Virus record (IMG/VR): IMGVR_UViG_3300050821_013558
Length of the DNA stretch: 64,000 nucleotides
Source: an uncultured virus (IMG/VR IMGVR_UViG_3300050821_013558)
Lineage: Duplodnaviria; Heunggongvirae; Uroviricota; Caudoviricetes
Direction: 5' to 3' (one strand)
Shown piece by piece: positions 30,569 through 56,149 of this stretch. The notes beneath the pieces were generated by a model. It was not told the origin of the DNA and searched no databases. It was given only the letters and a program-made list of their open reading frames with translations. Position numbers and translations under genes: made by a program. Every line of letters begins with the position of its first letter. Within the stretch, counting starts at the first letter, position 1.

Positions 30569-30910
30569 ATGAGCCCACGTCCCCGGCTTCCGAAAACGCA
30601 GTGGGCAGACGATTCGATCCGAGTCGAGGTCAAGGCTGCGGGTCTTGTCGACGAGCCTGCCAACCAGGAAGTCTTCAACGCTTGTCTTGCCGAGATGGGA
30701 TCTGTTCGGATGAGAGTTATGCTCGGATGTTACGGACCAGGAAGCGAAGAGCGCCCCAAGCCTCGCTATAGCTGGCTTTTGGGAGAGTCAGCAACGATCT
30801 TGTGTCGTGACACAGATGTGGCTAATTGGTTTCGTGAAGAACTTTTGAAGTGGCTGAAGTCTCTCGACGGAATAAAACTAGAGCGTGTGGAAGATGAGGA
30901 AGTCAAGTGA
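30569..30910 (+). CDS. Hypothetical protein
   Basis: Stop overlaps GTG of next gene. Confidence 0.55.
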   Translation: MSPRPRLPKTQWADDSIRVEVKAAGLVDEPANQEVFNACLAEMGSVRMRVMLGCYGPGSEERPKPRYSWLLGESATILCRDTDVANWFREELLKWLKSLDGIKLERVEDEEVK

Positions 30911-33984: not shown

Positions 33985-34003
33985 TAGGAAAGGGAACAGT
34001 CGA

Positions 34004-34825
34004 ATGAGTCGCATTTTGATTGGGATTTTAACGGCGCATCATCCCTCCCGTTGGTGGTATCGCGTAGCTGCGCGGCAAAATTATCTTAAAGGTTCCGATC
34101 TGGATCATTTGTTTGTCTTCGGGCGGCCTCCTGTTTCCGATTGGCCAGTCGAGCAGCAGGAGGATGAACTTTGGGTGGATTGCGACGATCGCAAGGAGTA
34201 CATGGTTTACAAGAATCAAGCGCTGTTTCGTTACGCGCTCGATCATGGGTATACGCATGTGTTCAGGTGCTGCGACGATACGGTTGTTTTTCCTGACCGT
34301 ATCGCCAACGCCGGTCTGGAAAGTTATGATGTAGCCGGCACAGTGCCCTGCAAATTTTCTCTTGGCGGCACGTTTAAGACCTGGTTCCAGTATCTGAATT
34401 ATTTTCACGGCGGAACGGGAATTTGGCTTTCGCGTAAAGCGATGGAAATGCTCGTAGCGGATGTGTGGGACGAGCATCGTTTGGATTCATGGCCGGAGAA
34501 ATTGGACCTGGGCTTTGGCTTGCAGATTAGTAAGCCGAAAAAATATTGGGACGACCACTGGATTTCGGAGGTGCTGCAAGGCAATTTGCCTTACGACCAC
34601 CCCAACCGCAAGCAGCCAATGACCGCCTATGCCTTGAATGGATTGTCGGTGTTCGAGGATGAGATGCTGTTTGTCAACAGCGAGCCTATGCGGGCTCTTA
34701 CTCTTCACGATCCAGGCGTCCACAAGATCAATTCACGCGAGATGGACGAAGTAATGGAGCAGATCAAACAGCGTAATATCGCGATGGCTGAAGCTGCACG
34801 AGCACAGGAGGCCCCCATTGCCTGA
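34004..34825 (+). CDS. GT31/Fringe-like glycosyltransferase
   Basis: ILIGILT, HVFRCCDDT, YFHGGTGIWLSRKAMEML, WDD..IS. Confidence 0.75.
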   Translation: MSRILIGILTAHHPSRWWYRVAARQNYLKGSDLDHLFVFGRPPVSDWPVEQQEDELWVDCDDRKEYMVYKNQALFRYALDHGYTHVFRCCDDTVVFPDRIANAGLESYDVAGTVPCKFSLGGTFKTWFQYLNYFHGGTGIWLSRKAMEMLVADVWDEHRLDSWPEKLDLGFGLQISKPKKYWDDHWISEVLQGNLPYDHPNRKQPMTAYALNGLSVFEDEMLFVNSEPMRALTLHDPGVHKINSREMDEVMEQIKQRNIAMAEAARAQEAPIA

Positions 34826-41651: not shown

Positions 41652-42146
41652 ATGACCCCACAAAGAGCATATCGCATTAAAGAGGCAGTCTGTTACTTTA
41701 CAGACAAAAACAACAAGCGTGCTGTGATGCGCGATGTCGTATTGGGAGAGGTCATCACTCCGCGAATCGAGCATATTTTCTCTAAAGGTCAGTGCCACGC
41801 TCTTGCGGTCGCGTTGCATGAGATTCTTGGGTGGGAAGTGATGGGTGCGTGTGATTTTTGGGGCGGCGGCTCTCGCCACACGTACCATTACGTTATTCAG
41901 TGCCCAGACCACCGAGGCGATGCGGACATCCACGGAATTCGTTGTTTGGACCATGGTTTGCGAAAGGCGAATGTAGGCGCGATTCTCGGTGGAAGGGTTA
42001 GAGGATTCTTGCCGCCAGCAATGAGCTTTGCCAGGCACTACGCCAAGATTATCGCTCCTGAGATTCAGAAGCAGTGGGATGCTTTGAAAGCCGGGAAGTC
42101 TAAACCGCGCTGGACGTTGTGCTCGGAAGGATACGACGATAAATAG
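41652..42146 (+). CDS. Hypothetical protein, possible Cys-His-Asp (transglutaminase/papain-like) fold
   Basis: GQCHALAVALH...GW, HYVI, DADIHG; AAGGAG SD. Confidence 0.5.
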   Translation: MTPQRAYRIKEAVCYFTDKNNKRAVMRDVVLGEVITPRIEHIFSKGQCHALAVALHEILGWEVMGACDFWGGGSRHTYHYVIQCPDHRGDADIHGIRCLDHGLRKANVGAILGGRVRGFLPPAMSFARHYAKIIAPEIQKQWDALKAGKSKPRWTLCSEGYDDK

Positions 42147-45040
42147 TGCCTCTCGATCTTCAACACGTTGAAAAATTCTTCACGCGACTGCATATCCGCG
42201 ATAGAGACGAGGGAACGTTTGTCCCTTTCACACTTCGTCCTCAGCAGCAGGAGATATTTCACTTAGCTAAAGAGCATCTTGCGCGGCGTCGTAGACTGTT
42301 TATTATCTTCCTCAAAGCTCGTCGTCTTGGAATTTCCACCATCGCAACCGGGCTCGGTCAAGCGCACTGCATTGCACATCCAGGGTCCATGGCGCGCTGC
42401 ATCGCACAGAATGCCAAAGTAGCGTCTGCTAATTTCGAGATGGCCGGTAGTTTTTTCAAGGACTGCCGCGACCTATATCCTGGCGCAGCTAAGCCCACTA
42501 AGTCTCTACTTGTATGGCCACATTCTGACGGACCTGATTCTACTTTCGAGCATCATACCGCAGCTACGGTTCACGGTCAGCGCGGACTAACTTCGTCTTT
42601 CATTCATTTAACCGAAGCAGCGTTTTATCCCTACGAAGGGGTGTTCACGAGTTTGCTCAACACGCTGAGCATGGATAAAAATAACGCCTGCTTAGTTGAA
42701 ACAACAGCAAATGGCCAAGAAGGCCCTGGCGAAGCGTACTACCAGTATTGGGAAGCGGCGATGTCAGGAGAAAACGAGTTTCTTCCTATTTTTCTGCCGT
42801 GGTGGGACGATCCGGCGTATGTGCTGCCGGAAGAACTTGCTCAAGACGCTCCTCGCGATGAGTACGAGAAGCGTTTAATGAATGATATCAGACACTGGAA
42901 GACGGGGAAGAAAGTTAAGTTAGGCAAAGATCGCATCGCGTGGTTTCGCGAAACACTCTCCACACGTTGCGAAGGAATTTTGGAAAAATTTCGCGCTGAG
43001 TACCCATCTGACCCGCAGGAAGCTTTTATCGCCACAGGCAACCCTGCGTTCACGATTGAAGAGATTCAATTTGCTGAAAATGCGGTAGTGAAGATCCCTC
43101 CGTTCCGCGGCCGATGCGTTCTCTCAAGTGATCTCAAGCACGGTGAACTTCAGAAGGGAACGGACGGGCCGTTGGTAGTCTACGAGACTCCACAAAAAGG
43201 TCACCATTATTTCGCGGGCGTGGACTCCGCACGAGGTGAAGAAAACACGATGGCCCCCGGCGATTATGCGGCTATTGTGGTGTGGAACGGAGAGACCGGA
43301 GATTTGGCGGCACGGTATATGTCTCGCGTGTCTCCGGAAGAGCTTGCTCCTGTAGCTGCAGCTCTCGGCTATTATTTCAATGGAGCCATGCTCAATGTTG
43401 AGCTGAACAATATCGGCTACGTCACGATGCGTGAACTTCGTGACCGGCTTTACTATCCGAACCAATATATCTGGAAGGGCCGCGATGACCGCGTGGATCG
43501 CTCGAAGCAAGGTGTGGCCTACGGATTTGAGACTTCCGATCGCTATCGGAAGATGATGTTCTCTATGTTTCGTAATTCTCTTTATCGCAAAGAGGTCGTG
43601 CCGAAGGATCGTGTATTCGTGGATCAGATGAAGAAAGCGAAGATGGAAATGGCTTGGCGCTGGAATGTTGCAGTTGGCCACGATGATGTTCTTATGTGTC
43701 TCAATCCAAAAGAGTTAGTAGAAACTCAAGATGGATTAAAACACATTTGTGATATTCGGCCAAGTGAATTCGTGCGGACCCACACAGGTGAACTCCATCA
43801 AGTTCAAGGTGTCATGTCGCGTGAAGTCAATGAGGAAATGATTCACGTTGGTGTGATGGGAAATCCCGAGCCCACAAGTACGACAAGTAACCACCCTTAC
43901 TATGTGTGTCGGTACGAATGGAACAAACGCAACGGGGAACTAACTAGAACCAAAAAACAGGTCGAGATGCCGTCATGGAAGGCGGCGTCTGATGTACGCC
44001 TTGGGGATTCAGTGTTGTTTCCAAAGAGAAAGAATCTTCCTCTTGCCAGTCTTCCTCTCGACCAGTTATGGATTTTGGGTTGGTACTTAGCTGAGGGTTC
44101 ACGTTGCCGCAGGATTAAAAAAAGTCAAATGGCATTTTCGATTTCATTTGGATTGAACTCTTCGGAACGTAGTGTGGCGGAGCGGATATGCGAAATTTTG
44201 ATTAAGTACGATCCTCCTTCCAAATCTAATCAGAAGTCTCCGCGCATAGAAGACGTAAAAGGAAAAAATGCAATTCGTGTGAATTATAGTTCACGGTATT
44301 GGCATGCTTTTTTTACTAAATTGGCTGGCGGTTTGCAACAAGTTCGTAAAATCGATTCCTCAGTCTACAACTGTTCTGGGCTTTTGCCTCTCGTAGCTGC
44401 TTTCATGTCCGGCGATGGGTCTCAGCCAAAAGGGCAGCGTCATGCAGTTCACGGGAGTAGCACATCGCGTGTACTCATTCACCAGATCAGACAGATCATG
44501 ATAGATGAGGGTATTTGGTCTACAATCCACAAACCGAAAAATCAGGAAATTTGGGCATTGTGTGCGAGCGCTGAGTTTATTGAACGCTTTGTAGGTATTT
44601 CGAAATTTCATTCTATTGAGCATGAGAGAAAGTTTCACAAACGGCACGTCGTCGAGACAGATGAGGGATTTTGGGCACCAATCAAATCGCTCGCATTGAT
44701 ACCGTACTCTGGTCCGGTGTTGAATCTTGATATCGAGGGAGATCACACCTACCAGGCGCAGGGAGTAGCTGTTCACAACTCGGGCTTCCTCGGATGGATC
44801 GCAAAAGAGCAAAATCATCAGTTCGCATGTCAGCGCAAGTCAAGCAAAAACGTCATGATGTCCAAAGAAGAACTCGAAAACGCAGGCTTCGCACCTGCCC
44901 GCGGTCAGATGCCTGAGTGGCTGAAAGCACCGGAGGTGACTGGAGCCGGGATGCTGTTGACCAGCGGCAACGATCACCTTAAGAAGCTCGAAATTTATGC
45001 GAAGAAAAAAGCGCGTATGAATCGCTTAGAGTGGGTCTAG
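42146..45040 (+). CDS. terL: Terminase large subunit containing an intein
   Basis: Walker A-like LKARRLGIST, Walker B IHLTEAAF, ETTANG, nuclease GVDSARG...GDY...HDD. Confidence 0.92.
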   Translation: MPLDLQHVEKFFTRLHIRDRDEGTFVPFTLRPQQQEIFHLAKEHLARRRRLFIIFLKARRLGISTIATGLGQAHCIAHPGSMARCIAQNAKVASANFEMAGSFFKDCRDLYPGAAKPTKSLLVWPHSDGPDSTFEHHTAATVHGQRGLTSSFIHLTEAAFYPYEGVFTSLLNTLSMDKNNACLVETTANGQEGPGEAYYQYWEAAMSGENEFLPIFLPWWDDPAYVLPEELAQDAPRDEYEKRLMNDIRHWKTGKKVKLGKDRIAWFRETLSTRCEGILEKFRAEYPSDPQEAFIATGNPAFTIEEIQFAENAVVKIPPFRGRCVLSSDLKHGELQKGTDGPLVVYETPQKGHHYFAGVDSARGEENTMAPGDYAAIVVWNGETGDLAARYMSRVSPEELAPVAAALGYYFNGAMLNVELNNIGYVTMRELRDRLYYPNQYIWKGRDDRVDRSKQGVAYGFETSDRYRKMMFSMFRNSLYRKEVVPKDRVFVDQMKKAKMEMAWRWNVAVGHDDVLMCLNPKELVETQDGLKHICDIRPSEFVRTHTGELHQVQGVMSREVNEEMIHVGVMGNPEPTSTTSNHPYYVCRYEWNKRNGELTRTKKQVEMPSWKAASDVRLGDSVLFPKRKNLPLASLPLDQLWILGWYLAEGSRCRRIKKSQMAFSISFGLNSSERSVAERICEILIKYDPPSKSNQKSPRIEDVKGKNAIRVNYSSRYWHAFFTKLAGGLQQVRKIDSSVYNCSGLLPLVAAFMSGDGSQPKGQRHAVHGSSTSRVLIHQIRQIMIDEGIWSTIHKPKNQEIWALCASAEFIERFVGISKFHSIEHERKFHKRHVVETDEGFWAPIKSLALIPYSGPVLNLDIEGDHTYQAQGVAVHNSGFLGWIAKEQNHQFACQRKSSKNVMMSKEELENAGFAPARGQMPEWLKAPEVTGAGMLLTSGNDHLKKLEIYAKKKARMNRLEWV
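43697..44779 (+). mobile_element. 361-aa intein with LAGLIDADG homing endonuclease
   Basis: Starts CLNPKELV, TT.NHPY block B, LGWYLAEG and AFMSGDG, VLNLDIEGDHTY, ends VHN followed by Ser. Confidence 0.95.
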
Positions 45041-45051
45041 GGGGCGCAGAG

Positions 45052-46020
45052 GTGAACAACGATGATCGAGCAACGAGGGACTCAATTGCTGATTTCCTTT
45101 CCAACGGAACAGGCGGCAAGTCAAGCCCGGCAGTGGATGGAAATGGCGGTGATCCCGTGGCTGCCGATGGTAAGCCAGCAACAACCCCCCGCACCCGCCA
45201 GCTCCGAACCTCCTTCCGAACAGCAGCGTTCGAATCACGTCCTCTTGACGGACGACCGGTTGGAGGCTCTCTCGAACCAGCGAGCCCAGGGCCTGACGGC
45301 GCACCAGCGACTGCTGCGCGCGCAAAGCACTTTAAGGGATGGCGTACTTCCCTTCAGCAAACCGGGGGAAGCCCCTCAACCGACAAACCAGTCCAGCCCG
45401 CGGATGCGAGCGCAGCAGGAGGGCGGGTTCGCGGACGGGGAGCTGCGGAGCCCGGACCCGCAGCCGAAGGCGACCGCACTACGGCCAGCAGCGCTGGCCG
45501 ACGGGGCCGTCCAAAGAAAGACCAGACTCAGGCCATCCCCAAGCTCCCTAAAGCCATCGCAAAGTTGATTCCGAGGAACGGGGGAGATGTCGCTTCTGTT
45601 GCGTCTTTGTCAAAACTCGTCCCCACCGAGACTGAGCGATCGAGTGCCACCCGTCTCTTCCGCGAGATCGGCGAGACGTTCAACAAGAACCGGAAGAAGT
45701 CGAAGACAGCGGCCTACGCCGCCTTCCGTCACGACTTGATGGCGAATCTCGATACCCTGATCATGGGTGGCGCGATCGATCTGAAGGAAGCGACCACGAT
45801 CATCACTAATCTCGAGCAGTACACCAAAGAGACCGAAGCGGAATCGACCGAGACCCCAGCGACGATCCTGGGCCGTTGGTTGCGGATGGACGCGGTTGAG
45901 GTGGTTGGACTTTCGGTTGAGACTGTGGAAGAAGTTGTGGAAGATGAGGAAAACTCAGGAGAAGAGATTGACGAGTTGGATTCTCTTCCCGATCCACTCC
46001 ATGCAACAGACGGCCATTGA
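45052..46020 (+). CDS. Hypothetical protein: disordered N-half, helical core, acidic tail (possible small terminase)
   Basis: Follows terL; GTG start; function inferred from position only. Confidence 0.55.
   Translation: MNNDDRATRDSIADFLSNGTGGKSSPAVDGNGGDPVAADGKPATTPRTRQLRTSFRTAAFESRPLDGRPVGGSLEPASPGPDGAPATAARAKHFKGWRTSLQQTGGSPSTDKPVQPADASAAGGRVRGRGAAEPGPAAEGDRTTASSAGRRGRPKKDQTQAIPKLPKAIAKLIPRNGGDVASVASLSKLVPTETERSSATRLFREIGETFNKNRKKSKTAAYAAFRHDLMANLDTLIMGGAIDLKEATTIITNLEQYTKETEAESTETPATILGRWLRMDAVEVVGLSVETVEEVVEDEENSGEEIDELDSLPDPLHATDGH
45062..45568 (+). CDS. Possible overprinted ORF (168 aa) in +1 frame
   Basis: GAGGTG SD 7 nt before ATG. Confidence 0.4.
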   Translation: MIEQRGTQLLISFPTEQAASQARQWMEMAVIPWLPMVSQQQPPAPASSEPPSEQQRSNHVLLTDDRLEALSNQRAQGLTAHQRLLRAQSTLRDGVLPFSKPGEAPQPTNQSSPRMRAQQEGGFADGELRSPDPQPKATALRPAALADGAVQRKTRLRPSPSSLKPSQS

Positions 46021-47622
46021 GTTTCCAAGGGCCTTGTATCGTGGCCCGTCCGCTGTTTTCTTGTTTATTTTGGTGTAGCCATCGGGAAATTTCTGAAGGC
46101 GTTCGCATTCCGTTGGGGTAAGACGACGGACTTGCATGGCAGCTACGTAGCTTCTGCTGCTGCCTCCGCTGGCCGAACGCAACGAAGCCTGGTCGGCCAT
46201 TTCAGGTTGTGATCCGCCTTCGCGGCCACGGAGGTTGAAAGCCACCGCCTGCGGCACTTGCCGCGCTTCGACTGTGTACGCCAACCCGTCTTCCCGCACA
46301 CCCACGCCATCGGGACCGGCCAGTGGATTCTCGCAGATGGCGCGTTCCTGAATTGCGATGGCGATCTGCCCCCCGGCATTCGCATGGCTGCCGGAGAAGT
46401 TCATGGAGCGGAGAGTCGGAGCGATTTCGCCGGAGTCGAGGCCCGAGTCTTTACAGGAGAAGGCGATTGTTTGAGCACGCTTTGTGTCTAAAGGCAATGC
46501 GCAGTCCTCAAGTGTCGGGCATGAGGGGGGAGCCCACTCAGATCCTCCTTGAGCCATACCCGTGAATGCAATTGCCACCGGCACTAGCGGCGTCCCCCTT
46601 CCCGTTTCGTCTTCCGAGGCGTCGAATCCGTCGGCGCGGAGGGAGTGAGTGACCAGGGTGCTTTCCCTGGCTCCCCCTTGTCCTTGAAGATTGCCTTTAC
46701 GAATTGTTGTCGCTTCTTTTGCTTCGTTCCACCAGCCAGCGCCGGTTTCGTTGAAGGTTTCCTGCGGCACAAGGACTGCGGGGAACCTATTTTTCTCGGG
46801 CATCATCTGGCCCTTCTGCAGCACAGCATCAAGAGTCTGGCTTACCTGTCCGCCGTCCCACCACGAAGGCTCTAGCTCAGCAGGTCTTCCAGTGTTGGCG
46901 ACAAGTCCTCCGTCGCAGTCGAAGTCGGTTCCGAGGCCACCGCCAGCAGAGCGTCGCGAAGGGATGGTGGGAGCGCCTTGCCCCTTTTCTCTGCTCGGCG
47001 GAGAATTCCCTTGCAGGCTTTGGCGCTCAAAAAGAACCGGCGGTCGACTTTGCCAGTCTCCAGAATCTCGGACAAGGAAGACGCGACGGCGCCGTTGCGG
47101 AACTCCGAACCATTGCGCGTCCAGAACTGTCCACTCGACGAGTCCTCGGGGTCCAAGAGCCACTCCGGTGTTTTGCCATTTGTTTTTGGGTACAGCAAAT
47201 TCGGTTCCAGCCAGTTCTCCAACCACTGCCGCAAAGTCAAGTCCTGAGTTGGAAGAAAACAGTCCGGGGACGTTTTCTGCGATAGTCCAGCGAGTTCCCC
47301 AGAGTCCATGGCAGATTTCGACGATTCGCATGGCTTCAAAGAAGAGTCCACTACGTGATCCTTTCAATCCGGCGCGTTTGCCGGCGACCGATAAATCCTG
47401 GCAGGGAAACCCAAAGACGACGGCATCGACAGGGCCGATCGCAATCAGCATTTCACGGGTGATTCCACACACGTTGCCCAGGTTCGGTACGTCTGGGTGA
47501 TGATGTTTCAGAACGGCGCAGGGGAATTTGTCGATTTCGGCTACTGCGGCACAGACCCAACCCAGGCGAATCCAGGCTACGCTTGCGGCCTCGATTCCGC
47601 TGAACAAACTGATAAAACGCAT
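45955..47622 (-). CDS. C5 cytosine DNA methyltransferase
   Basis: SLFSGIE, GFPCQDLS, ENVPG, QRRRRVFLV, RRLTPTECERLQ, YKALGNS. Confidence 0.95.
   Translation of the reverse strand: MRFISLFSGIEAASVAWIRLGWVCAAVAEIDKFPCAVLKHHHPDVPNLGNVCGITREMLIAIGPVDAVVFGFPCQDLSVAGKRAGLKGSRSGLFFEAMRIVEICHGLWGTRWTIAENVPGLFSSNSGLDFAAVVGELAGTEFAVPKNKWQNTGVALGPRGLVEWTVLDAQWFGVPQRRRRVFLVRDSGDWQSRPPVLFERQSLQGNSPPSREKGQGAPTIPSRRSAGGGLGTDFDCDGGLVANTGRPAELEPSWWDGGQVSQTLDAVLQKGQMMPEKNRFPAVLVPQETFNETGAGWWNEAKEATTIRKGNLQGQGGARESTLVTHSLRADGFDASEDETGRGTPLVPVAIAFTGMAQGGSEWAPPSCPTLEDCALPLDTKRAQTIAFSCKDSGLDSGEIAPTLRSMNFSGSHANAGGQIAIAIQERAICENPLAGPDGVGVREDGLAYTVEARQVPQAVAFNLRGREGGSQPEMADQASLRSASGGSSRSYVAAMQVRRLTPTECERLQKFPDGYTKINKKTADGPRYKALGNSMAVCCMEWIGKRIQLVNLFS
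46872..47351 (-). CDS. Nested out-of-frame ORF resembling the M.EcoHK31I beta polypeptide
   Basis: KTSPDC...GQFWTRN.SE...SSLSEILET...FFLS.KACKGILRRAEKRGKALP. Confidence 0.7.
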   Translation of the reverse strand: MDSSLKPCESSKSAMDSGELAGLSQKTSPDCFLPTQDLTLRQWLENWLEPNLLYPKTNGKTPEWLLDPEDSSSGQFWTRNGSEFRNGAVASSLSEILETGKVDRRFFLSAKACKGILRRAEKRGKALPPSLRDALLAVASEPTSTATEDLSPTLEDLLS

Positions 47623-47663: not shown

Positions 47664-47710
47664 TCTTAGTGTTATGGCGTAAAAGTCCACTCCCTACCCA
47701 CACATAATAT
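47664..47710 (+). promoter_or_regulatory. Putative late promoter
   Basis: TCTTAGTGTTATGG, 27 nt, TAATAT; 14-mer identical at 52058. Confidence 0.55.
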
Positions 47711-47735
47711 CCTTCCAACCAGCAGAGGGATACGC

Positions 47736-47933
47736 ATGTCTGAGACTGCCCGCGCAAAATATCAGGACTCCGGAGCCCCGCCTGAGTTCCGCTCTTCCCT
47801 CCCCCAGAATCCGCGCAAGGAATACAATTCCGCCGAAGCTCGTCCTTCAGGGCGCTCCGGTGGCGGGTCGGTTTCGACTCCCCATCGTGTGTCCAGTTCC
47901 CGCCGTGGGAAGAGAAAGTCGGCGCGCGCATGA
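47736..47933 (+). CDS. Small basic protein with Arg/Lys tail
   Basis: GAGGG SD; ends SSSRRGKRKSARA. Confidence 0.6.
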   Translation: MSETARAKYQDSGAPPEFRSSLPQNPRKEYNSAEARPSGRSGGGSVSTPHRVSSSRRGKRKSARA

Positions 47934-48241
47934 TGGACGATCCGGAAGTTACAATCGAGCCTGCCGACAACGGCTACATCGTCAAGCACTACCAGCGCTC
48001 GACCAAGAAGGACGAAAGCGGACGCACTATCCGCCGCGTTGCATCGACTGCTGACGAAGCGCTGGGGCACGCAGGCAAGGTGCTCAGCACCAGGGCCGGC
48101 AAAAAGAAATCGTCTCGGGATGGGCAAGCTCAAGAAGCGGGGGCGGAGGCTTCATCCCCCGTTGCCCATTCCTTCGGTGGTCATCGTTCTCGCGGCTTAG
48201 CCAGGCGTCGCCGCCCTCGCGTCGGCGGAAGGAGAGCCTGA
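47930..48241 (+). CDS. Small protein with Arg-rich tail
   Basis: VTIEPADNGYIV; ends LARRRRPRVGGRRA. Confidence 0.65.
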   Translation: MMDDPEVTIEPADNGYIVKHYQRSTKKDESGRTIRRVASTADEALGHAGKVLSTRAGKKKSSRDGQAQEAGAEASSPVAHSFGGHRSRGLARRRRPRVGGRRA

Positions 48242-48244
48242 TCC

Positions 48245-48514
48245 ATGCCACAGGATAATCCTGCTGCGGACACTCTTCTGGCGATTCCTCGTATGCTGGG
48301 CCGGATAGGCAACCGCTACGACCCGCCTGCCCCTGCGCGCGTAGATCCTTCTTGGCACAACGATATGGTTCAGCAGGCCAATCGATCGTTTCAGGCGAGA
48401 CAGGACGCTGAACGGGCTGCTGCGGCAGCAGCGGCAGCGGCGCCTGCGGCTGCGCGATCCGCGAAGCGAGTTCCGAAGCGCACTCCAGCGCGGCCGGTGG
48501 CGAAGCGGAGGTAG
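48245..48514 (+). CDS. Small protein with Ala run and basic tail
   Basis: AAGGAG SD; ends RSAKRVPKRTPARPVAKRR. Confidence 0.6.
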   Translation: MPQDNPAADTLLAIPRMLGRIGNRYDPPAPARVDPSWHNDMVQQANRSFQARQDAERAAAAAAAAAPAAARSAKRVPKRTPARPVAKRR

Positions 48515-48518
48515 AATC

Positions 48519-48704
48519 GTGCCATGGCGAGCCAGCGACGTTTCGAAACACAACAAGTCGGTAAAATCACCAAAACGTAAAAGACAGTGGAGTGAAATCG
48601 CGAATTCCATCCTCGAGCGGACAGGCTCGGATTCGCGTGCAATTCGTGGCGCGAACGCCGCAGTGAAGAAGTCTCAGGCCCGTCGTACCAGAAAGAGGGC
48701 GTAA
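48519..48704 (+). CDS. ChaB-like small basic protein
   Basis: MPW...QWSEIANSIL...D.RAIRGANAAVKK; ends QARRTRKRA; GGAGG SD. Confidence 0.6.
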   Translation: MPWRASDVSKHNKSVKSPKRKRQWSEIANSILERTGSDSRAIRGANAAVKKSQARRTRKRA

Positions 48705-48706
48705 CC

Positions 48707-49045
48707 ATGATTTCTCGTTTCCGTAAAATCGTTGTTTTCTTCGTTGTAGTTTTATTCTGCGCTCTGGCAGCGTGGGCTACGACTCCGCGTTTGATCCAGG
48801 TCACTCTCGGCACAGGTGCGACGCAGATAGTTGTCACATCCACTTACTTTAATCAAATGACAATTCAGAACAACGCCACGCACAACATCCGATACGGCGA
48901 TTCCACGGTCTCGTCTACCAAAGGGATTCTCCTTACTCCCGGTGGTGCCGGCAGCACAGGTACGGTCTCAGGACAACAGGGAGACGCGAGTCAGTTCTAC
49001 ATCGCTGGAACGAGCGGCGACGTAATTGATGTGCTTGTGTGGTAA
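48707..49045 (+). CDS. Beta-sandwich protein with signal-peptide-like N-terminus
   Basis: RFRK + hydrophobic run + AWA; IQNN...IRYGDSTVS...GILL.PG. Confidence 0.6.
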   Translation: MISRFRKIVVFFVVVLFCALAAWATTPRLIQVTLGTGATQIVVTSTYFNQMTIQNNATHNIRYGDSTVSSTKGILLTPGGAGSTGTVSGQQGDASQFYIAGTSGDVIDVLVW

Positions 49046-49073
49046 AGGGATGCTACGATAGGAGGCGAGTCCC

Positions 49074-49322
49074 ATGGCAACCAAACATAAGTTTGCGCGC
49101 GGCGAGTGGAATCCGGTGCATCCGTCCAAAAAAGGTGCGGAGACGGCCAAGGCCAAACGCCGTGGAGTTTCCTTGCACCAGCAGGCGGAAAAAGATTCTC
49201 ACAGCAGCGATCCGAAAGTTCGCGGCCGTGGCGTATTTGCGTTGAACGCTCAGGCGGGGAAGTTCCACCATCGGACTGGTCTGAAGAAGGCAACGCGACG
49301 CCGTAGCCGGTCGCGCGCATAG
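49074..49322 (+). CDS. Small basic protein with Arg/Ser tail
   Basis: AGGAGG SD; ends KKATRRRSRSRA. Confidence 0.7.
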   Translation: MATKHKFARGEWNPVHPSKKGAETAKAKRRGVSLHQQAEKDSHSSDPKVRGRGVFALNAQAGKFHHRTGLKKATRRRSRSRA

Positions 49323-49324
49323 GT

Positions 49325-49939
49325 TTACGAGAGTATATTCGTGAGCGCCGCGCACATACGCTTCTTGCGAATTACCTTGATTGGAAAGTGATTGGTGCCC
49401 GGAATGGTGAGGGCTTCTTCGACGGTCCATCCGCCGCGGTCGATGCGATTTTTAACTGTCATAAAAGGCAAGCCGATTGTGCGCGCCCATTCTGAAATAC
49501 ATTTCGTTTCTCCATGAAATGTGAGTAGGTGATTGCTTTTCAAGTTTTGGTTTTGTTCTCGTCGTGTAGCCCATCGACAATTTCCTTTGAAGTACCCGAG
49601 AGATCCGTTGATTCTATCGAGGCTTTTTCCAATCGGACGTTCTCCGAGGTCAGAAAGAAAAGCCTCGAACGATTCGCTCCATTCTTTTGAGACAGTGATG
49701 CCTGCGCCTCCGTATTTTGGAAAATCCGTGTAGTTTGGGTTGGTGCACCGTTGGAGCATCATTGCCCAGCTTCTGTAAGTACGACTCCTGGATTTTCCAT
49801 GGGTTGGGTTATTAAACTTGGCGCTGCATGAAACAGAGCAGAATTCGCCCAAGCCACGCTTAATGCGGTAGGGGTGCACGTAGAATTCTTTGTTACAGTA
49901 TTTGCAGTAACGCAGTACACTTGATTTTGGGGGTGTCAT
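49325..49939 (-). CDS. HNH-like homing endonuclease, antisense insertion
   Basis: THG.S.SRTYRSW..M.QRC, YGGAGITV..EW..SFEAFL.D.GERP..KSLDRI...GY..GNCRWAT. Confidence 0.85.
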   Translation of the reverse strand: MTPPKSSVLRYCKYCNKEFYVHPYRIKRGLGEFCSVSCSAKFNNPTHGKSRSRTYRSWAMMLQRCTNPNYTDFPKYGGAGITVSKEWSESFEAFLSDLGERPIGKSLDRINGSLGYFKGNCRWATRREQNQNLKSNHLLTFHGETKCISEWARTIGLPFMTVKNRIDRGGWTVEEALTIPGTNHFPIKVIRKKRMCAALTNILS

Positions 49940-50045
49940 GGTCGCTCCTTGTCAGCGGCTAGGCTTTGCCGGTGCTTCAACACCGACACTCCCCATCGTA
50001 TCACAAAGAAAAGTGCTATGCTGATGAACAAAAGAGGGTAAGGCC

Positions 50046-51818
50046 ATCGCAAACATTACGTTCATCGGAACTGCTCGAAAGTCCGCGAAGCAGGAGCATA
50101 TAGATCCGAGGGCAAGACATATCCGCGAATGGCGAGAGGCTTCAGATTCAGCCCGCAACAAGGCTCTTGGGGAATCCTTCGCCAAGAATGCTGAAGACCT
50201 TTATAATCTTTCCGATGCGATGACCCCCGGTCCGGTCTACAGGCCCTCGTTGTCCATTCCGATGCTGCAGCGAATCATGCTTGAAGAGGCTAATCAAGTC
50301 TCGAATCTTTCTCCTCGCATGTATGTGTTTCCGTCTGCCGGTTCTTCTGATCCTTCTTACCAAGGTGCGCAGCAAGCGGATTCTTCTCTTCCCTCATCGT
50401 CTGCGCGCGATCTGGCGCGAGAGGTTTCACTTCAAGCTCAGTGGCAGATCAGTAAAATGAATCTGCATCTCCTGATGGCAGGGCTGACTGCGCGATACTG
50501 CGGAGCTGGCTGGATCGTCGCTGGGTTTGATCCGAATCTTTCGCGTGCGCGCGGCGGTATGTGGGCTCGTTCGATGGACCCTCGCATGGTCTTCTTCGAT
50601 CCCAACACGGACTATACTTGGAATCCTTCTTTCGCTGGCTGGTCTATGGGGATGAATTTGGAGGATATCCGGCTCAAATGGCCGGAGACCTCGCGTGCGG
50701 TTCAACCGCGTCGTACCAGCGGAGGCTTTCAACCATTTTCTGGCGACTCCGGTTACGGGATCTCGCAGCCCCCAGGGCCTATGTCGTCGATGCCTTCTTC
50801 TCCCGGTCAGAATGCGAAGACACAATCTTCTGACTCAATGCTGTTGGTAACCCACTGCTTTTGTCGCGACTACACACGCGAGGCTGTTGAGAAGCCTGAT
50901 GTACCGACTACGTCTTTGATCGATCCAGAAGTTCGGCTCAAATATCCGAATGGCCGTTGGTTGATAGAGTGCGAAGGCGTTGTGCTTCAAGACGGCGACA
51001 ATCCATATCCTCCACGTCGCGACATCACAGCGCCGAGATTTCCGTTGTTTGTAAATTACACATTGCCTCCTCTCTTCGGTCCATGGGGGATTCCCGTCAC
51101 GCGCATGACTGAGAATATGCAGAGGCTTGCTCAGCGGTTTTATTCGCAAATCTTCGAGAATGGTCTGCGTATGAACAACGCGCTATGGATTATAGATGAA
51201 AATACTGGAGTGGATATCGACGGTTTTGGAGGTCTGCCCGGTGAGGTCGTGACAATCAAGCCGGGCAGCCGGCCGCCTCAGCCGATTACTCCCAGTGCGA
51301 TCGGCGCGGGCGCCATGCAAGGCGCCGAGAAACTTCTCGCGCTGCAGAACGACGTGCTTGGATTCTCAGCTTCCCGGCAGGGCGATCCAGGCGCCGGCAA
51401 CGTGTCGACTGATTTATTCGATTCAGCGGTTTTGCAATCGTCGGGATTGCTGCAATTGGCTGGACGATTTTTGTCGGAGACGGCGCAGATGGTTGGAGAA
51501 TTTTTCTTCGACAGCATGTGTCGGTACATGGACAAGAGCAATCTTCCTTACCGTGGACCCGAGGGAATTACCCTCGCTTCATGGGCGGGCATGGTTGATC
51601 CTTCGACCTACGATGTGGCGCTCGACGAAGCTTCAGTGCGGCCACTCAGCGAAGCGATCGTCCGAAAAATTACGCCAGACTTGATGAAATCTGGAGTCGT
51701 AGGACCGGAGCGCGGGCTGCGGACTTTGGGTTACCCCGATCCCGAGGGAATTGCTTCGGAGCAACAAACGCAGCAGGCCCTGGCCGCGCTGGCTAAAGTT
51801 CGGAGTGGGCGCAAATGA
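50046..51818 (+). CDS. Portal protein (start probably ATC 50046; first ATG 50220)
   Basis: Size and position between terL and scaffold/capsid; MDPRMVFFDP, PWGIP..R..E.MQR, PGEVV. Confidence 0.75.
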   Translation: MANITFIGTARKSAKQEHIDPRARHIREWREASDSARNKALGESFAKNAEDLYNLSDAMTPGPVYRPSLSIPMLQRIMLEEANQVSNLSPRMYVFPSAGSSDPSYQGAQQADSSLPSSSARDLAREVSLQAQWQISKMNLHLLMAGLTARYCGAGWIVAGFDPNLSRARGGMWARSMDPRMVFFDPNTDYTWNPSFAGWSMGMNLEDIRLKWPETSRAVQPRRTSGGFQPFSGDSGYGISQPPGPMSSMPSSPGQNAKTQSSDSMLLVTHCFCRDYTREAVEKPDVPTTSLIDPEVRLKYPNGRWLIECEGVVLQDGDNPYPPRRDITAPRFPLFVNYTLPPLFGPWGIPVTRMTENMQRLAQRFYSQIFENGLRMNNALWIIDENTGVDIDGFGGLPGEVVTIKPGSRPPQPITPSAIGAGAMQGAEKLLALQNDVLGFSASRQGDPGAGNVSTDLFDSAVLQSSGLLQLAGRFLSETAQMVGEFFFDSMCRYMDKSNLPYRGPEGITLASWAGMVDPSTYDVALDEASVRPLSEAIVRKITPDLMKSGVVGPERGLRTLGYPDPEGIASEQQTQQALAALAKVRSGRK

Positions 51819-52051
51819 CGGAATCAACGATTGCAAACAAAGAGTCCGAGCCTGTCCGATCTGTTCCATCTCATGCTTGGCGATCCCACTGGTTGACTGT
51901 TCAAGAATTTGCACGTGTGACGGGCCGTGATCCTCAGACTGTTTACTGGTGGATCGGAAACGGAACTTTAGCCGAATTCGGAGTTCCGGTGTGCCAGTTC
52001 CGCGGCAGCAGGCTGCATTCGGGCAGGACGTTTATCTTAAATATCTACTGA
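51815..52051 (+). CDS. Excisionase-like HTH protein, candidate late regulator
   Basis: WLTVQEFARVTGRDPQTVYWWIGNGTL. Confidence 0.7.
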   Translation: MTESTIANKESEPVRSVPSHAWRSHWLTVQEFARVTGRDPQTVYWWIGNGTLAEFGVPVCQFRGSRLHSGRTFILNIY

Positions 52052-52057
52052 TTCGGC

Positions 52058-52105
52058 TCTTAGTGTTATGGAACCTGTCTAGTATTCCCCTCCCATCGCT
52101 AATAT
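52058..52105 (+). promoter_or_regulatory. Putative late promoter
   Basis: TCTTAGTGTTATGG, 28 nt, TAATAT. Confidence 0.55.
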
Positions 52106-52166
52106 TCTTTCTCCAATCACACATTCACCCGGCATTCGTGCTCGTGCTTGTGTAAAGGAGAACATC

Positions 52167-52205
52167 ATGGCTCGTCGTCATCGCAAGGAAAAGAAACGGA
52201 AGTAA
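52167..52205 (+). CDS. 12-aa basic micropeptide MARRHRKEKKRK
   Basis: AAGGAG SD 6 nt upstream; GAAA-loop hairpin after stop. Confidence 0.55.
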   Translation: MARRHRKEKKRK

Positions 52206-52294
52206 TCTGGCGGCGGAGAGAAATCTTCGCCTGACCTGATCTACCTCCCTGTCGTCCGTCGTCGCATCAACTCCCGAAAGGAGCCTCAGTCCAG

Positions 52295-52420
52295 ATGGCC
52301 GGAACCCCTCGAATCAAAGCTTCCAGCGTCGTCAAAGACTTTGGCCAGCCCCGGAAGTTTCTGCGTGACATGCGGGCAAAGGCCGCTAAGAATTCCCGCA
52401 AAGGATCGAAGCGGACCTAG
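52295..52420 (+). CDS. 41-aa basic peptide MAGTPRIK...NSRKGSKRT
   Basis: AAGGAG SD; 13 of 41 residues K/R. Confidence 0.55.
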   Translation: MAGTPRIKASSVVKDFGQPRKFLRDMRAKAAKNSRKGSKRT

Positions 52421-52515
52421 CTCATCCCGGAGACGGTGCTGTTGCCCTTCGCACCCCGTCTTCTTAGCCAGCAGCGACACCTGTCGTTGCAACCCGGAGC
52501 GAAGGAGGCTCGACG

Positions 52516-52572
52516 ATGGCTTCTCGTGGTGGTAGACGATCTAAGCGTCGGCGCGCCGCCGTTCGTAGGTAG
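52516..52572 (+). CDS. 18-aa protamine-like micropeptide MASRGGRRSKRRRAAVRR
   Basis: AAGGAGG SD 7 nt upstream; hairpin after stop. Confidence 0.6.
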   Translation: MASRGGRRSKRRRAAVRR

Positions 52573-52734
52573 AGGGAACTTAGGTTCCTTTTGTTCGACG
52601 GCGGCGGTGAGAACTGGTGGGGGACTAGAATTCACCCCGCTTGCCGAAAGCGGTCGATGCGCAAGACAGGAGGAAGGCCGGAGCCGGGGAAACCCGCTTC
52701 GGCTCAACTCCCAACTTAAACTTTGGAGCAGAAC

Positions 52735-52803
52735 ATGAAAAGCTGCAAGATCATGAAGATGACCCGGAACGTGGATCGCAGGGTCGGCGGGAAGCGGAAG
52801 TAG
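52735..52803 (+). CDS. 22-aa basic micropeptide MKSCKIMKMTRNVDRRVGGKRK
   Basis: GGAG SD 6 nt upstream. Confidence 0.5.
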   Translation: MKSCKIMKMTRNVDRRVGGKRK

Positions 52804-52812
52804 AGGACTTCG

Positions 52813-53358
52813 ATGGCAGGTGTTAAGCAAGCAAACCGGCGAACGCTCAAGGTCGATATCAGGGATACCGATTGGGCGCGGCTTGCGGCCTACATCGATG
52901 GTGAGGGATGCGTTAACATCCACACTAACCGTGGGCAAGAGGCGCTCGGAAAGTCAAGGAATCATTCTCTTAAGATTCATGTCACCAACACGGATCCACG
53001 CTTGCCAGTTTGGATTTTTGAGACGTTTGGTGTTGGTAAGTGCCGTCAGAAACAAAAATCTCCGAGCATCGTCGCTTATATGGGCACGGGGAAGAAGTGG
53101 CGGCAAGTTCATATTTGGCAGGTAGAGGCTAAACTCGCCGCGCAAATCCTTGAAGGCTGTATGCCGTTCTTCGTCATCAAACGCGAACAGGCTGAAATTG
53201 CCATTGCATTTCAGAAGACCAAGACCTATCACAACGGCGGAGGCAAACGGGGAACTCGTATCCCAGTCAATGTAATTCAAATGCGCGAGCAGATGGCGCA
53301 TGAGGTTCGCCAACTTAAGCACGTCAACTATGAAATCAAGGAGGCCGTAAATGGCTAA
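52813..53358 (+). CDS. Free-standing single-motif LAGLIDADG endonuclease
   Basis: WARLAAYIDGEGCV, VTNTD, PFFVIKREQA. Confidence 0.88.
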   Translation: MAGVKQANRRTLKVDIRDTDWARLAAYIDGEGCVNIHTNRGQEALGKSRNHSLKIHVTNTDPRLPVWIFETFGVGKCRQKQKSPSIVAYMGTGKKWRQVHIWQVEAKLAAQILEGCMPFFVIKREQAEIAIAFQKTKTYHNGGGKRGTRIPVNVIQMREQMAHEVRQLKHVNYEIKEAVNG

Positions 53359-53536
53359 AATCAAGGAATCGATGGGGAATACGTTCAACTCCGAAATTTT
53401 GAAATCCCCCCTCACGGTCGGTCGCGTAGGCAACGAGCCCGGTCCTGACGTGAACAACAATCCGGTTGCGATGCCCAAGGATCCTCTTGGCCTCATCCCC
53501 GAAGGCGGCGACAAGCCTCACTGGTCTGACAAGTAA
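53351..53536 (+). CDS. Small head-module protein
   Basis: AAGGAGG SD. Confidence 0.65.
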   Translation: MAKIKESMGNTFNSEILKSPLTVGRVGNEPGPDVNNNPVAMPKDPLGLIPEGGDKPHWSDK

Positions 53537-53560
53537 GCATCGAACGAGGATTTGATCTAA

Positions 53561-54064
53561 ATGGCAGCAGGGAATCCAGCCTTGGCGCAGATGATGGCGC
53601 GGCAACTGATCGGGAAACTCGCAGGAGGAGCGCCTAACGGCGGCCCTCCCGCTGGCCCCGGCGGTCCGATGCCTCCTCCGCCTGGGATGACAGGTCAGGG
53701 TGGTTCTGGTGGCCCAAGTGCGGGCGGAACGGGAGCCCCCGGCTCCCCGCCCCCTACAACTCCTGCTGGCCTTCAGCTTTCTCAGCAACTGGCCGAGCTT
53801 CAGGGCGCCGATCCTGACGCCATGATCAAGTCTTTAACTTCGATGAAGTCGATGGCTGTTCAGCAGTACACGCGCGCCGCCTTCACCATGCCCGGCGTCA
53901 CGCGTAATCTCGCTCAGGTCGTCAAGTATCTCGATAACTGTATCCAGGAAGCGGAGAAGGCAGCGGCCACCACGGCTGCGGCTGGTCCGATCACCAACAA
54001 CGCAGCCATCCCCAATCCTGCTGGCCAGAATGCGCCGGTCAACGGAATGGGATCACAACAATAG
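53561..54064 (+). CDS. Gly/Pro-rich head-module protein
   Basis: GAGG SD; between portal and scaffold. Confidence 0.65.
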   Translation: MAAGNPALAQMMARQLIGKLAGGAPNGGPPAGPGGPMPPPPGMTGQGGSGGPSAGGTGAPGSPPPTTPAGLQLSQQLAELQGADPDAMIKSLTSMKSMAVQQYTRAAFTMPGVTRNLAQVVKYLDNCIQEAEKAAATTAAAGPITNNAAIPNPAGQNAPVNGMGSQQ

Positions 54065-54080
54065 AAGGAGACCTACCCCC

Positions 54081-55061
54081 ATGGCTCTAAATGACATTCT
54101 CAAGAACGGCAAATATCCTGACGACATGGTGCTGAACCTGCCCGACGGGACTACGGTCAATGTTGGAGAAATCCGCGCTCTTCCTGTCGCTGAGCGCCAG
54201 GCTCTGACGGCGCAGATCGAGCAGCGCCAGAACACTCTCGGCCAGGCCGAGCTTGCCTTCGCAGCCAAGTTTCAGGATGCGGTCAAGGCCGGCTGGATCG
54301 CGCAGGACGGCAGAATCGTTCCGCCGACGCAGCAGACGACTCAGCAAACCACGCAACAGACTACGACGGCCGATCTCCGTCGCGCTGCCGCTGCCGAATA
54401 TGGTCTTGACGAGAACGACCCCTTGCTTGGCCCGGTGGTCAAGGAAATGAAGGCTCAGTTAGCTGAGCGCGACAAGACTTTGAATGAGCTTCGCACGAAG
54501 CTCGACGCGCTGCCGGCTCAGTTCGATTCGCTCAAATCCACCCTCACTGATTCGCTTGGCAAGGTGACCGGTGTGGTCAACACCTCGGTTGGCCGCTATT
54601 TGAACGACACGTATCAGCAGCAATTTGCCGCGGCAACCAAGGATTTGCCCAAGGACGTCAAGGTCGATTACGAGGCGGCTTACAAATATGCTTCCGACCA
54701 TGGCCTCAAGGACAAGGACGGGTTTCTTCAGATCCCCGATGCGGTGGACCGGCTGACCTGGAATGATCGTAAGAAAGCTGAACTGGACGCGGCCAAGGCT
54801 GATCTGATCGCCAAGACCACGAAGGATCTCGAGGAGAAGAATCGCGTTTCCACCCTTACTCCTCCGTCGCGCAATCCGCTTACGCAGACGGCCAAGCCCA
54901 AGGAAGGTGAATTCATTCCCTACAACGAGCGCACCGATTCCAAGGGGAACAAGGTCCGTGCCGTCAAGTCTTTCGAGGAAGCGATGTCGGAAGCGATGTC
55001 GGATGAAGATGTTCTGAAATCGGCGCTCTCGACGGCCAGTTTCGGTGGCGGAGTTCAGTAA
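54081..55061 (+). CDS. Putative scaffolding protein
   Basis: Helical/coiled-coil ORF directly upstream of capsid gene; AAGGAG SD. Confidence 0.65.
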   Translation: MALNDILKNGKYPDDMVLNLPDGTTVNVGEIRALPVAERQALTAQIEQRQNTLGQAELAFAAKFQDAVKAGWIAQDGRIVPPTQQTTQQTTQQTTTADLRRAAAAEYGLDENDPLLGPVVKEMKAQLAERDKTLNELRTKLDALPAQFDSLKSTLTDSLGKVTGVVNTSVGRYLNDTYQQQFAAATKDLPKDVKVDYEAAYKYASDHGLKDKDGFLQIPDAVDRLTWNDRKKAELDAAKADLIAKTTKDLEEKNRVSTLTPPSRNPLTQTAKPKEGEFIPYNERTDSKGNKVRAVKSFEEAMSEAMSDEDVLKSALSTASFGGGVQ

Positions 55062-55162: not shown

Positions 55163-56149
55163 ATGGCCAATAGCGTGGTTGGACTGGGACTTGCATCGCC
55201 ACCGGTTCAGTTGAGTAACACCGTCAACGCGATTTCCCAGAAATTTATCGTCCCTGTCCTCGGCGACAACGTGTTCAAGCCCTCCCCTGTTTTCTGGGCT
55301 CTCACCCGAGAGGGCAAACGGTTTGGCGCCGGCGAACTGATCTTCCCGGAAATCTACCAGGAAGAGCTTCCCGGCGGCGCGTACTACGGCGACCAGTTGC
55401 TCGATACCTCGGTCGTCGATTCCGTGCAGCCGGCGAACCAGCAGTGGAAGCCGTACCGCCAGCCTGTCGTGATTCCGATCACCGACATCATTTTGAACCG
55501 CGGCGGCTCGAACAACCTGGACATCATCCGGGCGAAATTCCAGACCGCATCCGGCAGCTTCCTGCAGAAGCTCTCGCGCGCCTTGTGGCACACCTCGCCG
55601 CAGAACACCTCGCTTGACGTGGACGATCTCAACTCGTGGGTCGTGTCGACCACGAATACGATCGCGGGCATTAATCGTGCGTCCTCGGCGAATGCCTGGT
55701 GGCTGGCCGCGACCGCTGTGGCCGGCGGTTCCGCTGCGTTGTCTTCGGCGACTGCCGAGCCTGGATACCAGTCCGTCACCTGGGGCTATGACGAGCCCGA
55801 TCTGTTCGTAATGAACCGGACATCGTATGCGGCGTTCAAGAATCAGTTTGTCGCCAACATCCGATTTGGCCAGGGAATGCAGGATGACGAAGCCTTGCAG
55901 GTTGGCTTCCGCAATCACTTCCTGTTCAACAACGCGGTGACGGTTGCCGATTACTTCGCGACCGCGAATCAGGCTCTGCTGTTGAACTCGAAGTACATTT
56001 TCCCGGTCTTCCATGAGGCGGATTACTTCAACGTGGATCCGTTCCTGAAGCCGTCGAACCAGCGTGTTCTCGTGTCGTGCATGTATCTGACCTGGAATCT
56101 GAGTTGCATCTCGCCCAGGATGAACGTGCCGTTCACAGCGATCACCTAA
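55163..56149 (+). CDS. Major capsid protein
   Basis: 328 aa, strongly C-biased third positions, DNVFK.SP, YYGD..L, IAGINR...WW, LLNSKY; position. Confidence 0.8.
   Translation: MANSVVGLGLASPPVQLSNTVNAISQKFIVPVLGDNVFKPSPVFWALTREGKRFGAGELIFPEIYQEELPGGAYYGDQLLDTSVVDSVQPANQQWKPYRQPVVIPITDIILNRGGSNNLDIIRAKFQTASGSFLQKLSRALWHTSPQNTSLDVDDLNSWVVSTTNTIAGINRASSANAWWLAATAVAGGSAALSSATAEPGYQSVTWGYDEPDLFVMNRTSYAAFKNQFVANIRFGQGMQDDEALQVGFRNHFLFNNAVTVADYFATANQALLLNSKYIFPVFHEADYFNVDPFLKPSNQRVLVSCMYLTWNLSCISPRMNVPFTAIT

Follow-up and report, generated by a model that had tools for sequence, protein, structure and literature searches.

A conserved array of basic micro-ORFs and two covarying RNA elements in the head module of uncultured tailed phages

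Four very short, strongly basic open reading frames lie in a row in the head module of an uncultured tailed phage (IMG/VR record IMGVR_UViG_3300050821_013558), and the same four recur in the same order at every closely related locus that we compared. By every comparative test available these frames, ORFs A to D, behave as real genes, whose translation is predicted from patterns of conservation. ORF C lies behind a covarying pseudoknot (element 1) that overlaps its Shine-Dalgarno (SD) sequence, and a second structured RNA (element 2) lies between C and D; both are covarying motifs absent from Rfam, whatever the function of the peptides. The reading we favour, at somewhat less than an even chance, is that the ORFs encode polycationic peptides, made late, which stand in for polyamines by binding phage DNA inside or near the head, their dose being set by the pseudoknot. 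Throughout, the window is the whole stretch of DNA analysed, 64,000 nucleotides long. The array consists of the following ORFs, each preceded by an SD sequence:

52167..52205, + strand: ORF A, 12 aa, 8 Lys+Arg, net charge +7; present in 44/44 close loci
52295..52420, + strand: ORF B, 41 aa, 13 Lys+Arg, net charge +11; conserved amphipathic core
52516..52572, + strand: ORF C, 18 aa, 9 Lys+Arg, net charge +9, RGG-type; behind the pseudoknot
52735..52803, + strand: ORF D, 22 aa, 9 Lys+Arg, net charge +8; conserved core

The initial annotation had given the coordinates, lengths and Lys+Arg counts of these four ORFs exactly, and each does have the SD sequence it was credited with. After the initial Met there is no large hydrophobic residue in A and one in C, and mean hydrophobicity is strongly negative; B and D contain amphipathic stretches, and their conserved cores read D-F-x-x-P-R-K-F-L-R-D-M-R-A and I-x-R-M-T-x-x-V-D-R-R-V-G, respectively. 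The same ORF filter, applied to both strands of the whole window, returned 18 ORFs: the four of the array, one in an upstream basic cluster, and 13 elsewhere. Against this background of 128 kb (both strands), the 640-nt array stretch is expected to hold 0.07 such ORFs and holds four (P(>=4) ~7e-7). Neither B nor D matched a family in Pfam, PHROG or NCBIfam (A and C fall below the tools' 20-aa limit), and B had no match in the Atlas and no significant match in the PDB, its sole match there being to a KFLRNAR stretch of ribosomal eL29 at E 2.3, which we rejected.

Relatives were gathered by searching viral contigs for the capsid and portal, which gave 69 distinct intervals between the portal gene and a 61-aa gene described below, one of them identical to that of the window. 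We define as close the intervals whose portal is at least 78% identical (n = 44), as distant those at 31-63% (n = 25), and as very distant a further set at ~30% (n = 19, two of them identical). The full series from A to D, each ORF keeping its SD sequence, start, stop and charge, is found in the same order in 44/44 close intervals (42 called automatically, and two D genes found by a relaxed search), although these loci share ancestry and do not amount to 44 independent tests. In every distant interval (25/25) the slot is occupied by between one and five SD-led basic ORFs, while among the very distant loci a short basic ORF is found in 16 of 19, an ORF of 45-47 aa with a basic tail in two, and none in one (L204). 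The slot peptides span 11-49 aa, and their length and number vary freely; pooled, they contain 41% Arg+Lys and 9% Gly, with large hydrophobics scarce. Over the 69 intervals, the density of SD-led basic ORFs was 2.53 per kb on the plus strand of the slot, 0.05 per kb on its minus strand and 0.085 per kb 3' of the capsid gene, which is an enrichment of ~50-fold over the slot minus strand and ~30-fold over the region 3' of the capsid gene.

Pooled pairwise Nei-Gojobori dN/dS, which ignores the tree, was 0.33 for A (where the alignment is poor), 0.44 for B, 0.32 for C and 0.33 for D, whereas the 61-aa gene gave 0.13 and the capsid gene, over its first 150 codons, 0.03. Across relatives, the stop codons of A to D alternate, Lys and Arg swap freely, length changes stay in frame, and amino-acid motifs survive synonymous change; the Arg codons are mixed, with no rare-codon runs. 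Values of 0.32-0.44, combined with free Lys/Arg exchange and in-frame length changes, are as expected if charge matters, and the low dS of ORF C (0.21) suggests an extra constraint at the RNA level. The initial annotation had named as one refuting outcome the case in which relatives keep RNA structure alone; we found instead that starts, frames, stops and charge are all kept. The coding sequences are short, rich in Arg and Lys, of low complexity and under selection, as those of viral protamine-like core proteins are, and no homology of B or D to any described family of such proteins was found. ORF B occurs in 69 viral loci, every one from this phage group; a blastn search of the array against cultured phages gave no match, and we found no cultured relative.

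The head module runs in the order terminase, SU10-like portal, HTH gene, array, LAGLIDADG ORF, ORFs of 61 and 167 aa, scaffold, capsid; the SU10-like assignment is a weak Pfam match, and the scaffold gene, which matches no family, is presumed from position alone. The neighbours referred to below are:

51815..52051, + strand: HTH gene (excisionase/MerR/BldC-like), directly 5' of the array; Pfam HTH_17 at E 8.8e-6, PHROG 575
52813..53358, + strand: free-standing LAGLIDADG endonuclease ORF
53351-53536: 61-aa ORF of no known family, immediately 3' of the array in most relatives
55163..56149, + strand: major capsid protein of HK97 fold; PHROG 9953 at E 1.5e-23, model pLDDT 84.5, Foldseek

In a Foldseek comparison with tailed-phage capsids the capsid model scored E 1e-11. 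The HTH_17 score of the HTH gene falls slightly short of the curated cut-off, and the gene has matches in most relatives. The LAGLIDADG ORF is confined, among close loci, to the window's twins and L003, and among distant loci to L057 and L067; it is an insertion, outside the array proper. The array had been described as lying between the portal and scaffold/capsid genes, but neither portal nor scaffold flanks it directly: the HTH gene separates it from the portal, and the LAGLIDADG ORF and two more ORFs separate it from the scaffold. The capsid, scaffold and portal proteins are all slightly acidic. The sole match among GTDB genomes was a 5.8-kb contig, with all four ORFs present, binned in an uncultured Terracidiphilus MAG, and on this thin evidence the host is probably an acidobacterium.

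Three features bear on the transcription of the array:

52061..52067, + strand: TAGTGTT box, where an activator of the array promoter may bind, in 44/44 close loci
52103..52108, + strand: putative -10 hexamer, TAnnnT at 30-40 nt 3' of the box, in 44/44
52129..52663, strand not assigned: RNA contig stretch over A-B-C in four runs, 99-100% identical in runs X1-X3

The late promoter proposed earlier has no match to the sigma-70 consensus, but a conserved TAGTGTT-like box, 92-118 nt 5' of ORF A, and the TAnnnT hexamer are found there in all 44 close loci; transcription would start near 52115, and the HTH gene is a candidate regulator of the box. A second copy of TAGTGTT, at 47667, stands before a second basic cluster. 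Part of the region 51800-54100 was present in 11 soil metatranscriptomes, and we compared contigs from runs X1-X4, leaving out X5-X11 (shares 0.08-0.15). The RNA contigs of two runs start at 52129 and 52130, and those of three end at 52660, 52663 and 52662, the end of a T-loop-like hairpin in element 2. In the same four runs, later genes are represented by scattered pieces of 151-252 nt, and ORF D and the HTH gene by no contig at all. The contigs carry neither strand nor level, and we draw no conclusion about level from these gaps; the pattern hints weakly that A, B and C share a discrete RNA which starts from a promoter near 52115. No terminator-like site was found on the plus strand.

The most distinctive feature of the array is the structure in front of ORF C:

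52429..52508, + strand: element 1, H-type pseudoknot with no Rfam family, from covariation and a shuffle test
52429-36/52456-63: helix P1 of element 1
52446-52/52499-505: helix P2 of element 1, overlapping the SD sequence of ORF C

P1 has 7-8 bp and a loop of 9-10 nt, P2 has 7 bp, and the remaining loops measure 3 nt and 7-81 nt; the third loop can contain a variable hairpin, here at 52471-90. The P1 pairing is retained across unrelated sequences, with 25 distinct 5' strands in 65 calls, a few of them doubtful, and P2 shows two-sided changes (CCUUCGC/GCGAAGG, CUUUCGC/GCGAAAG, CUUCUCUC/GAGAGGAG). Two crossing helices that covary, one of them over an SD sequence, are what is expected of a translational cis-regulatory pseudoknot. 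Beating all but at most 5 of 40 shuffles were 11 of the 12 close C ORFs tested (out of 44) and 21/25 distant last ORFs, as against 2/12 for A, 3/12 for B, 6/12 for D, 3/12 for distant first ORFs and 7/16 for very distant ORFs; the signal is uneven among the very distant loci. An automatic helix picker found P1 and P2 in 65 of the 69 intervals, with doubtful helices in L040 and L044 and none in L013, L053, L054 and L067, and a separate analysis recovered the expected knot in L040 and L053. In the most distant group, L193, L195, L196, L198 and L070 have an anti-SD right behind the P1 5' strand and a long second loop, a pseudoknot of another geometry that follows the same logic.

A pattern search for the pseudoknot matched 17 viral and 26 metagenome stretches, and 17/17 and 22/26 of these, respectively, lie 5' of a basic micro-ORF belonging to these phages. 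The other four (L258, L259, L261, L280), with neither a basic ORF nor an evident P1, we attribute to chance; the L261 match (901-953) precedes what appears by eye to be a prolyl-tRNA synthetase start. None of the 401 genomes searched from the phylum of the putative host matched a pattern that allows a gap of at most 42 nt and misses most close-clade copies, which argues that element 1 is not a borrowed host circuit. The stop codon of the upstream ORF, here ORF B, falls 8 nt before P1 in 43/44 close loci; in 14/25 distant loci this distance ranges from -1 to 22 nt, the other 11 having no called upstream SD-ORF or P1; a terminating ribosome could therefore melt the pseudoknot. The suggestion in the initial annotation that the peptides are tuned by mRNA structure has thus gained a concrete basis, and comparative data make element 1 a strong candidate for a translational switch.

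SD-sequestering H-type pseudoknots are known from the preQ1-II, SAM-II and SAM/SAH riboswitches, from the autoregulation of T4 gene 32 and rpsO, and from the coupling of IncI repY and repZ. Element 1 is like these in that a hairpin loop pairs with the SD-containing strand, with an optional hairpin in loop 3, and differs in matching no Rfam model and in its place before basic micro-ORFs. The HDV-like ribozyme consensus has a conserved P3 closing L3, a P1.1 and cleavage 5' of P1. We considered an HDV-like (theta) ribozyme and rejected it: the putative P3 fails to pair throughout in the window, L002, L005 and L039, the CUUCUCUC type lacks it, and the RNA contigs of X3 and X4 span the cleavage site.

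The second RNA element is restricted to the close clade:

52594..52713, + strand: element 2, a long stem with sub-elements
52614-28: invariant G5-loop hairpin of element 2
52650-62: T-loop-like hairpin of element 2
52663-71: conserved linker of element 2, which also has a variable stem and an invariant CCC

Among 31 sequences, 21 pairs were 97.6% paired, seven of them with two-sided change, and the score exceeded all 500 shuffles and all slid controls, in a test whose structure came from the same alignment and which relatedness of the sequences inflates. All 50 pattern matches (50/50) were contigs of the close clade. Pairing of the G5 loop with the CCC, which would make a pseudoknot, involves invariant columns with no covariation and was excluded from the pair count. 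We rejected a tmRNA or tRNA (ARAGORN found 0 genes, and the T-loop-like hairpin has no adjoining acceptor strand). Searches of Rfam 15 gave 0 matches at the gathering score and otherwise chance ones at E 1.4-9.4 (window at E<=10, nine relatives at E<=5). Group I intron, RNase P, pistol/twister and cobalamin/FMN classes, compared by consensus, were dropped, Rfam and ARAGORN having given nothing. The four hairpins singled out in the initial annotation all exist (52212-31, 52471-90, 52575-88, 52676-704), but their sequences vary and they are mostly accessory, the third being present here and missing in several relatives; the conserved RNA cores are elements 1 and 2, which had been overlooked.

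A shared C-terminus links the array to other proteins of the module. Arg occupies position -2 in 29/29 distinct A peptides, 30/32 B, 15/15 C and 37/37 D, and in 61/68 distant peptides (eight doubtful ORFs having been removed by name beforehand), against a background of 32% Arg at positions -8 to -3. The portal carries a basic C-terminal tail in 69/69 intervals, and a basic tail with Arg at -2 is found in 6/8 SD-ORFs of the 47.7-52.8 kb region as opposed to 3/152 elsewhere. Further basic ORFs lie outside the slot:

47667..49322, + strand: second cluster of five ORFs of 61-103 aa (47736-49322), with basic C-terminal tails ending Arg-x, behind the second TAGTGTT promoter
L040:11317-11424, L046:11560-11661, L053:12077-12187 and others: B-like peptides 3' of the capsid gene

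The second-cluster ORFs have no significant match in Pfam or NCBIfam; some of them resemble widespread unannotated small phage proteins and may be ChaB-like. Distant members of the group have more basic small ORFs beside the portal and 3' of the capsid gene, and a 55-kb clade whose slot lacks B has, in nine loci, a basic peptide resembling B at 0.46-1.1 kb 3' of the capsid gene (0/17 in close loci). Homology of these peptides to B received no support (hhalign probability 1%, E 0.056). The basic tails in the second cluster and the portal, together with the B-like peptides, suggest that basic peptides are spread over the whole module and are most densely packed in the array.

According to PMC6755088, the dsDNA stored by tailed phages is naked and accompanied by polyamines and cations, and adenoviruses package basic proteins; PMC7377361 notes, in a passage on polyamines, that most polyamine in cells is already bound. 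In the reading we favour, we infer that the micro-peptides are translated late, from their own promoter inside the head operon, and would bind phage DNA during maturation and packaging. They would finish inside or on the head as it fills, and so replace polyamines with a product of the phage itself ('phage protamines'). The basic tail ending in Arg-x-COOH, which the small proteins encoded upstream share, may be a DNA-gripping or head-sorting end. Gating of the most Arg-rich peptide by the pseudoknot is proposed because surplus polycation would do harm; excess polycation is reported to jam a packaging motor. The pseudoknot might open once a ribosome completes the upstream ORF, or at low free polycation, a direction and triggers that we infer from its position. 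The co-packaged DNA-neutralising role would follow from gene position, composition and promoter sharing. In its favour, the slot stays in the head module even as portal identity falls from 100% to ~30%, and by calculation ~440 copies of each peptide would neutralise 10% of a 77-kb genome, a number consistent with the strong SDs. Against it, the conserved hydrophobic cores of B and D and the Arg, rather than Lys, at -2 exceed the needs of pure charge neutralisation, and the RNA contigs are more continuous over A-B-C than over scaffold and capsid and end before D, a pattern just as compatible with expression at a time other than morphogenesis. The number of slot peptides has no monotonic link to complete genome size (four at 76.8 kb, three at 50.0 kb, one at 53.9 kb), and co-folding of the capsid protein with peptide B scored 0.00, to which we give no weight either way.

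A more elaborate form of the favoured reading, which we consider doubtful, is a self-regulating polycation system of 11-49 aa surrogates in which Arg-x-COOH is a head-sorting tag, the pseudoknot senses free polycation as a riboswitch would, and element 2 ends or processes the message. The sensed polycation would be the peptide itself, polyamines or Mg2+, the phage would titrate the charge neutralisation of its packaged genome, and element 2 would represent another new class of RNA.

The main rival, to which we give a better than one-in-four chance, is that the peptides stay in the cytoplasm. There they would compact or shield the host nucleoid or phage DNA that is yet to be packaged, as in a dormant carrier state, or else bind ribosomes, rRNA or the structured RNA that encodes them, in the manner of Arg-rich-motif peptides or tiny basic ribosomal proteins. 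The presence of A-B-C contigs in 4/4 runs, with only short scattered pieces from the head genes, points weakly this way, as do the RGG-type sequence of ORF C, the elaborate RNA structure on the same transcript, and the non-significant eL29 match of B. The basic peptides are, however, strictly among head genes, at three separate positions, the portal shares their basic tail, and the pseudoknot's absence from the 401 host-phylum genomes speaks against a borrowed host circuit.

The Arg at -2 could also be a docking signal. On this account, which we regard as improbable, the peptides help to assemble the procapsid or tag its cargo, and their Arg-x-COOH end and B/D helices dock on acidic scaffold, portal or capsid interior and so nucleate or size the shell, DNA binding being secondary. 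P22- and P2-type scaffolds use basic C-termini, whereas the scaffold C-terminus here is acidic, and both the near-universal Arg and the conserved amphipathic cores of B and D suit such docking. But A and C are nearly devoid of residues for specific protein contacts, and neither the length of the peptides (11-49 aa) nor their number (1-5 per slot) is constrained. Moreover, basic penultimate residues favour efficient termination, which could explain part of the Arg signal.

We rate slightly lower still the idea that the ORFs are leader peptides, of which translation alone matters, with ribosomes sensitive to Arg/Lys-tRNA refolding elements 1 and 2 and thereby setting read-through into scaffold and capsid. 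The spacing of the upstream stop from P1, the three RNA runs that end within element 2 and the low dS of ORF C all fit, yet amino-acid motifs persist despite synonymous change, Arg codons are mixed, similar basic ORFs exist away from the RNA elements, and the plus strand has no terminator-like site. Cationic membrane-active or lysis-accessory peptides, suggested by short cationic sequences with amphipathic stretches in B and D, are very improbable given the near absence of large hydrophobic residues from A and C, the strongly negative hydrophobicity, the lack of any apparent signal or transmembrane segment, and the place of the genes in the head module.

Among known systems, adenovirus mu and baculovirus P6.9 are protamine-like and condense packaged dsDNA. 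The array peptides resemble adenovirus VII/mu and P6.9 as short, Arg/Lys-rich, virus-encoded polypeptides with a proposed role in condensing packaged dsDNA (for pVII, PMC6755088). We found no sequence relation to pVII, mu or P6.9; these belong to eukaryotic viruses without an HK97 capsid, and their control is proteolytic or by phosphorylation, whereas the array has an SD-occluding pseudoknot. Microvirus J/VP8 and SSV1 VP2 are small basic proteins packaged with the genome, but they are single genes of ssDNA or spindle viruses, while here up to five slot ORFs with satellites occur in a tailed dsDNA phage, and B and D have no PHROG match. T4 IPI-III are basic proteins loaded into a tailed-phage head via a shared terminal capsid-targeting sequence; they are far larger and folded, with an N-terminal signal cleaved by protease, whereas the array peptides have 11-49 aa and share Arg-x at the C-terminus, and we identified no prohead protease. 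Myxococcus phage Mx9, the nearest cultured phage by capsid (26% identity), has a similar order of portal, small ORFs, scaffold and capsid, and its portal-scaffold interval, examined for ORFs of at least 20 aa, shows no SD-led basic micro-ORF array.

Neither an array of this kind nor its RNAs turned up in the open literature, where small-gene and RNA-motif catalogues in supplements could list them. As micro-ORFs fall far under annotation cut-offs, similar arrays elsewhere may go unnoticed. If the favoured reading is true, lineage-wide phage-made polycations would overturn, for common soil phages, the view of naked DNA with borrowed host polyamines, and the tolerance of the packaging motor for counter-charge would become testable with cheap synthetic 12-22-mers. 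Independently of that reading, element 1 is a strong candidate for a translational switch, with an unusual suspected trigger.

Several other features of these phages were seen along the way. Some slot peptides (in L005, L006, L012, L038, L054, L107, L187, L188 and L190-L193) have a short N-terminal leader, containing F/Y/L and rich in E, ahead of the basic part, like a cleavable targeting sequence. The portal frame runs ~59 codons 5' of the listed ATG (50042-50219), with an apparent ATC start behind an SD; among 16 distinct relatives in which the motif was located, the extended start is ATG in 11 and ATC in 5. The terminase large subunit (42146-45040) has 964 aa here, as compared with about 590-640 aa in most relatives, and its C-terminal insert resembles, by eye, a LAGLIDADG intein. 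The minus strand of the packaging region appears, again by eye, to hold a DNA-methyltransferase-like ORF (45955-47622), an overlapping ORF on the same strand (46872-47351) and an HNH-like ORF (49325-49939). Farther upstream, at 30907-34825, a cluster of FkbM-like methyltransferase and glycosyltransferase-like ORFs, likewise recognised by eye, may serve in DNA or surface modification.
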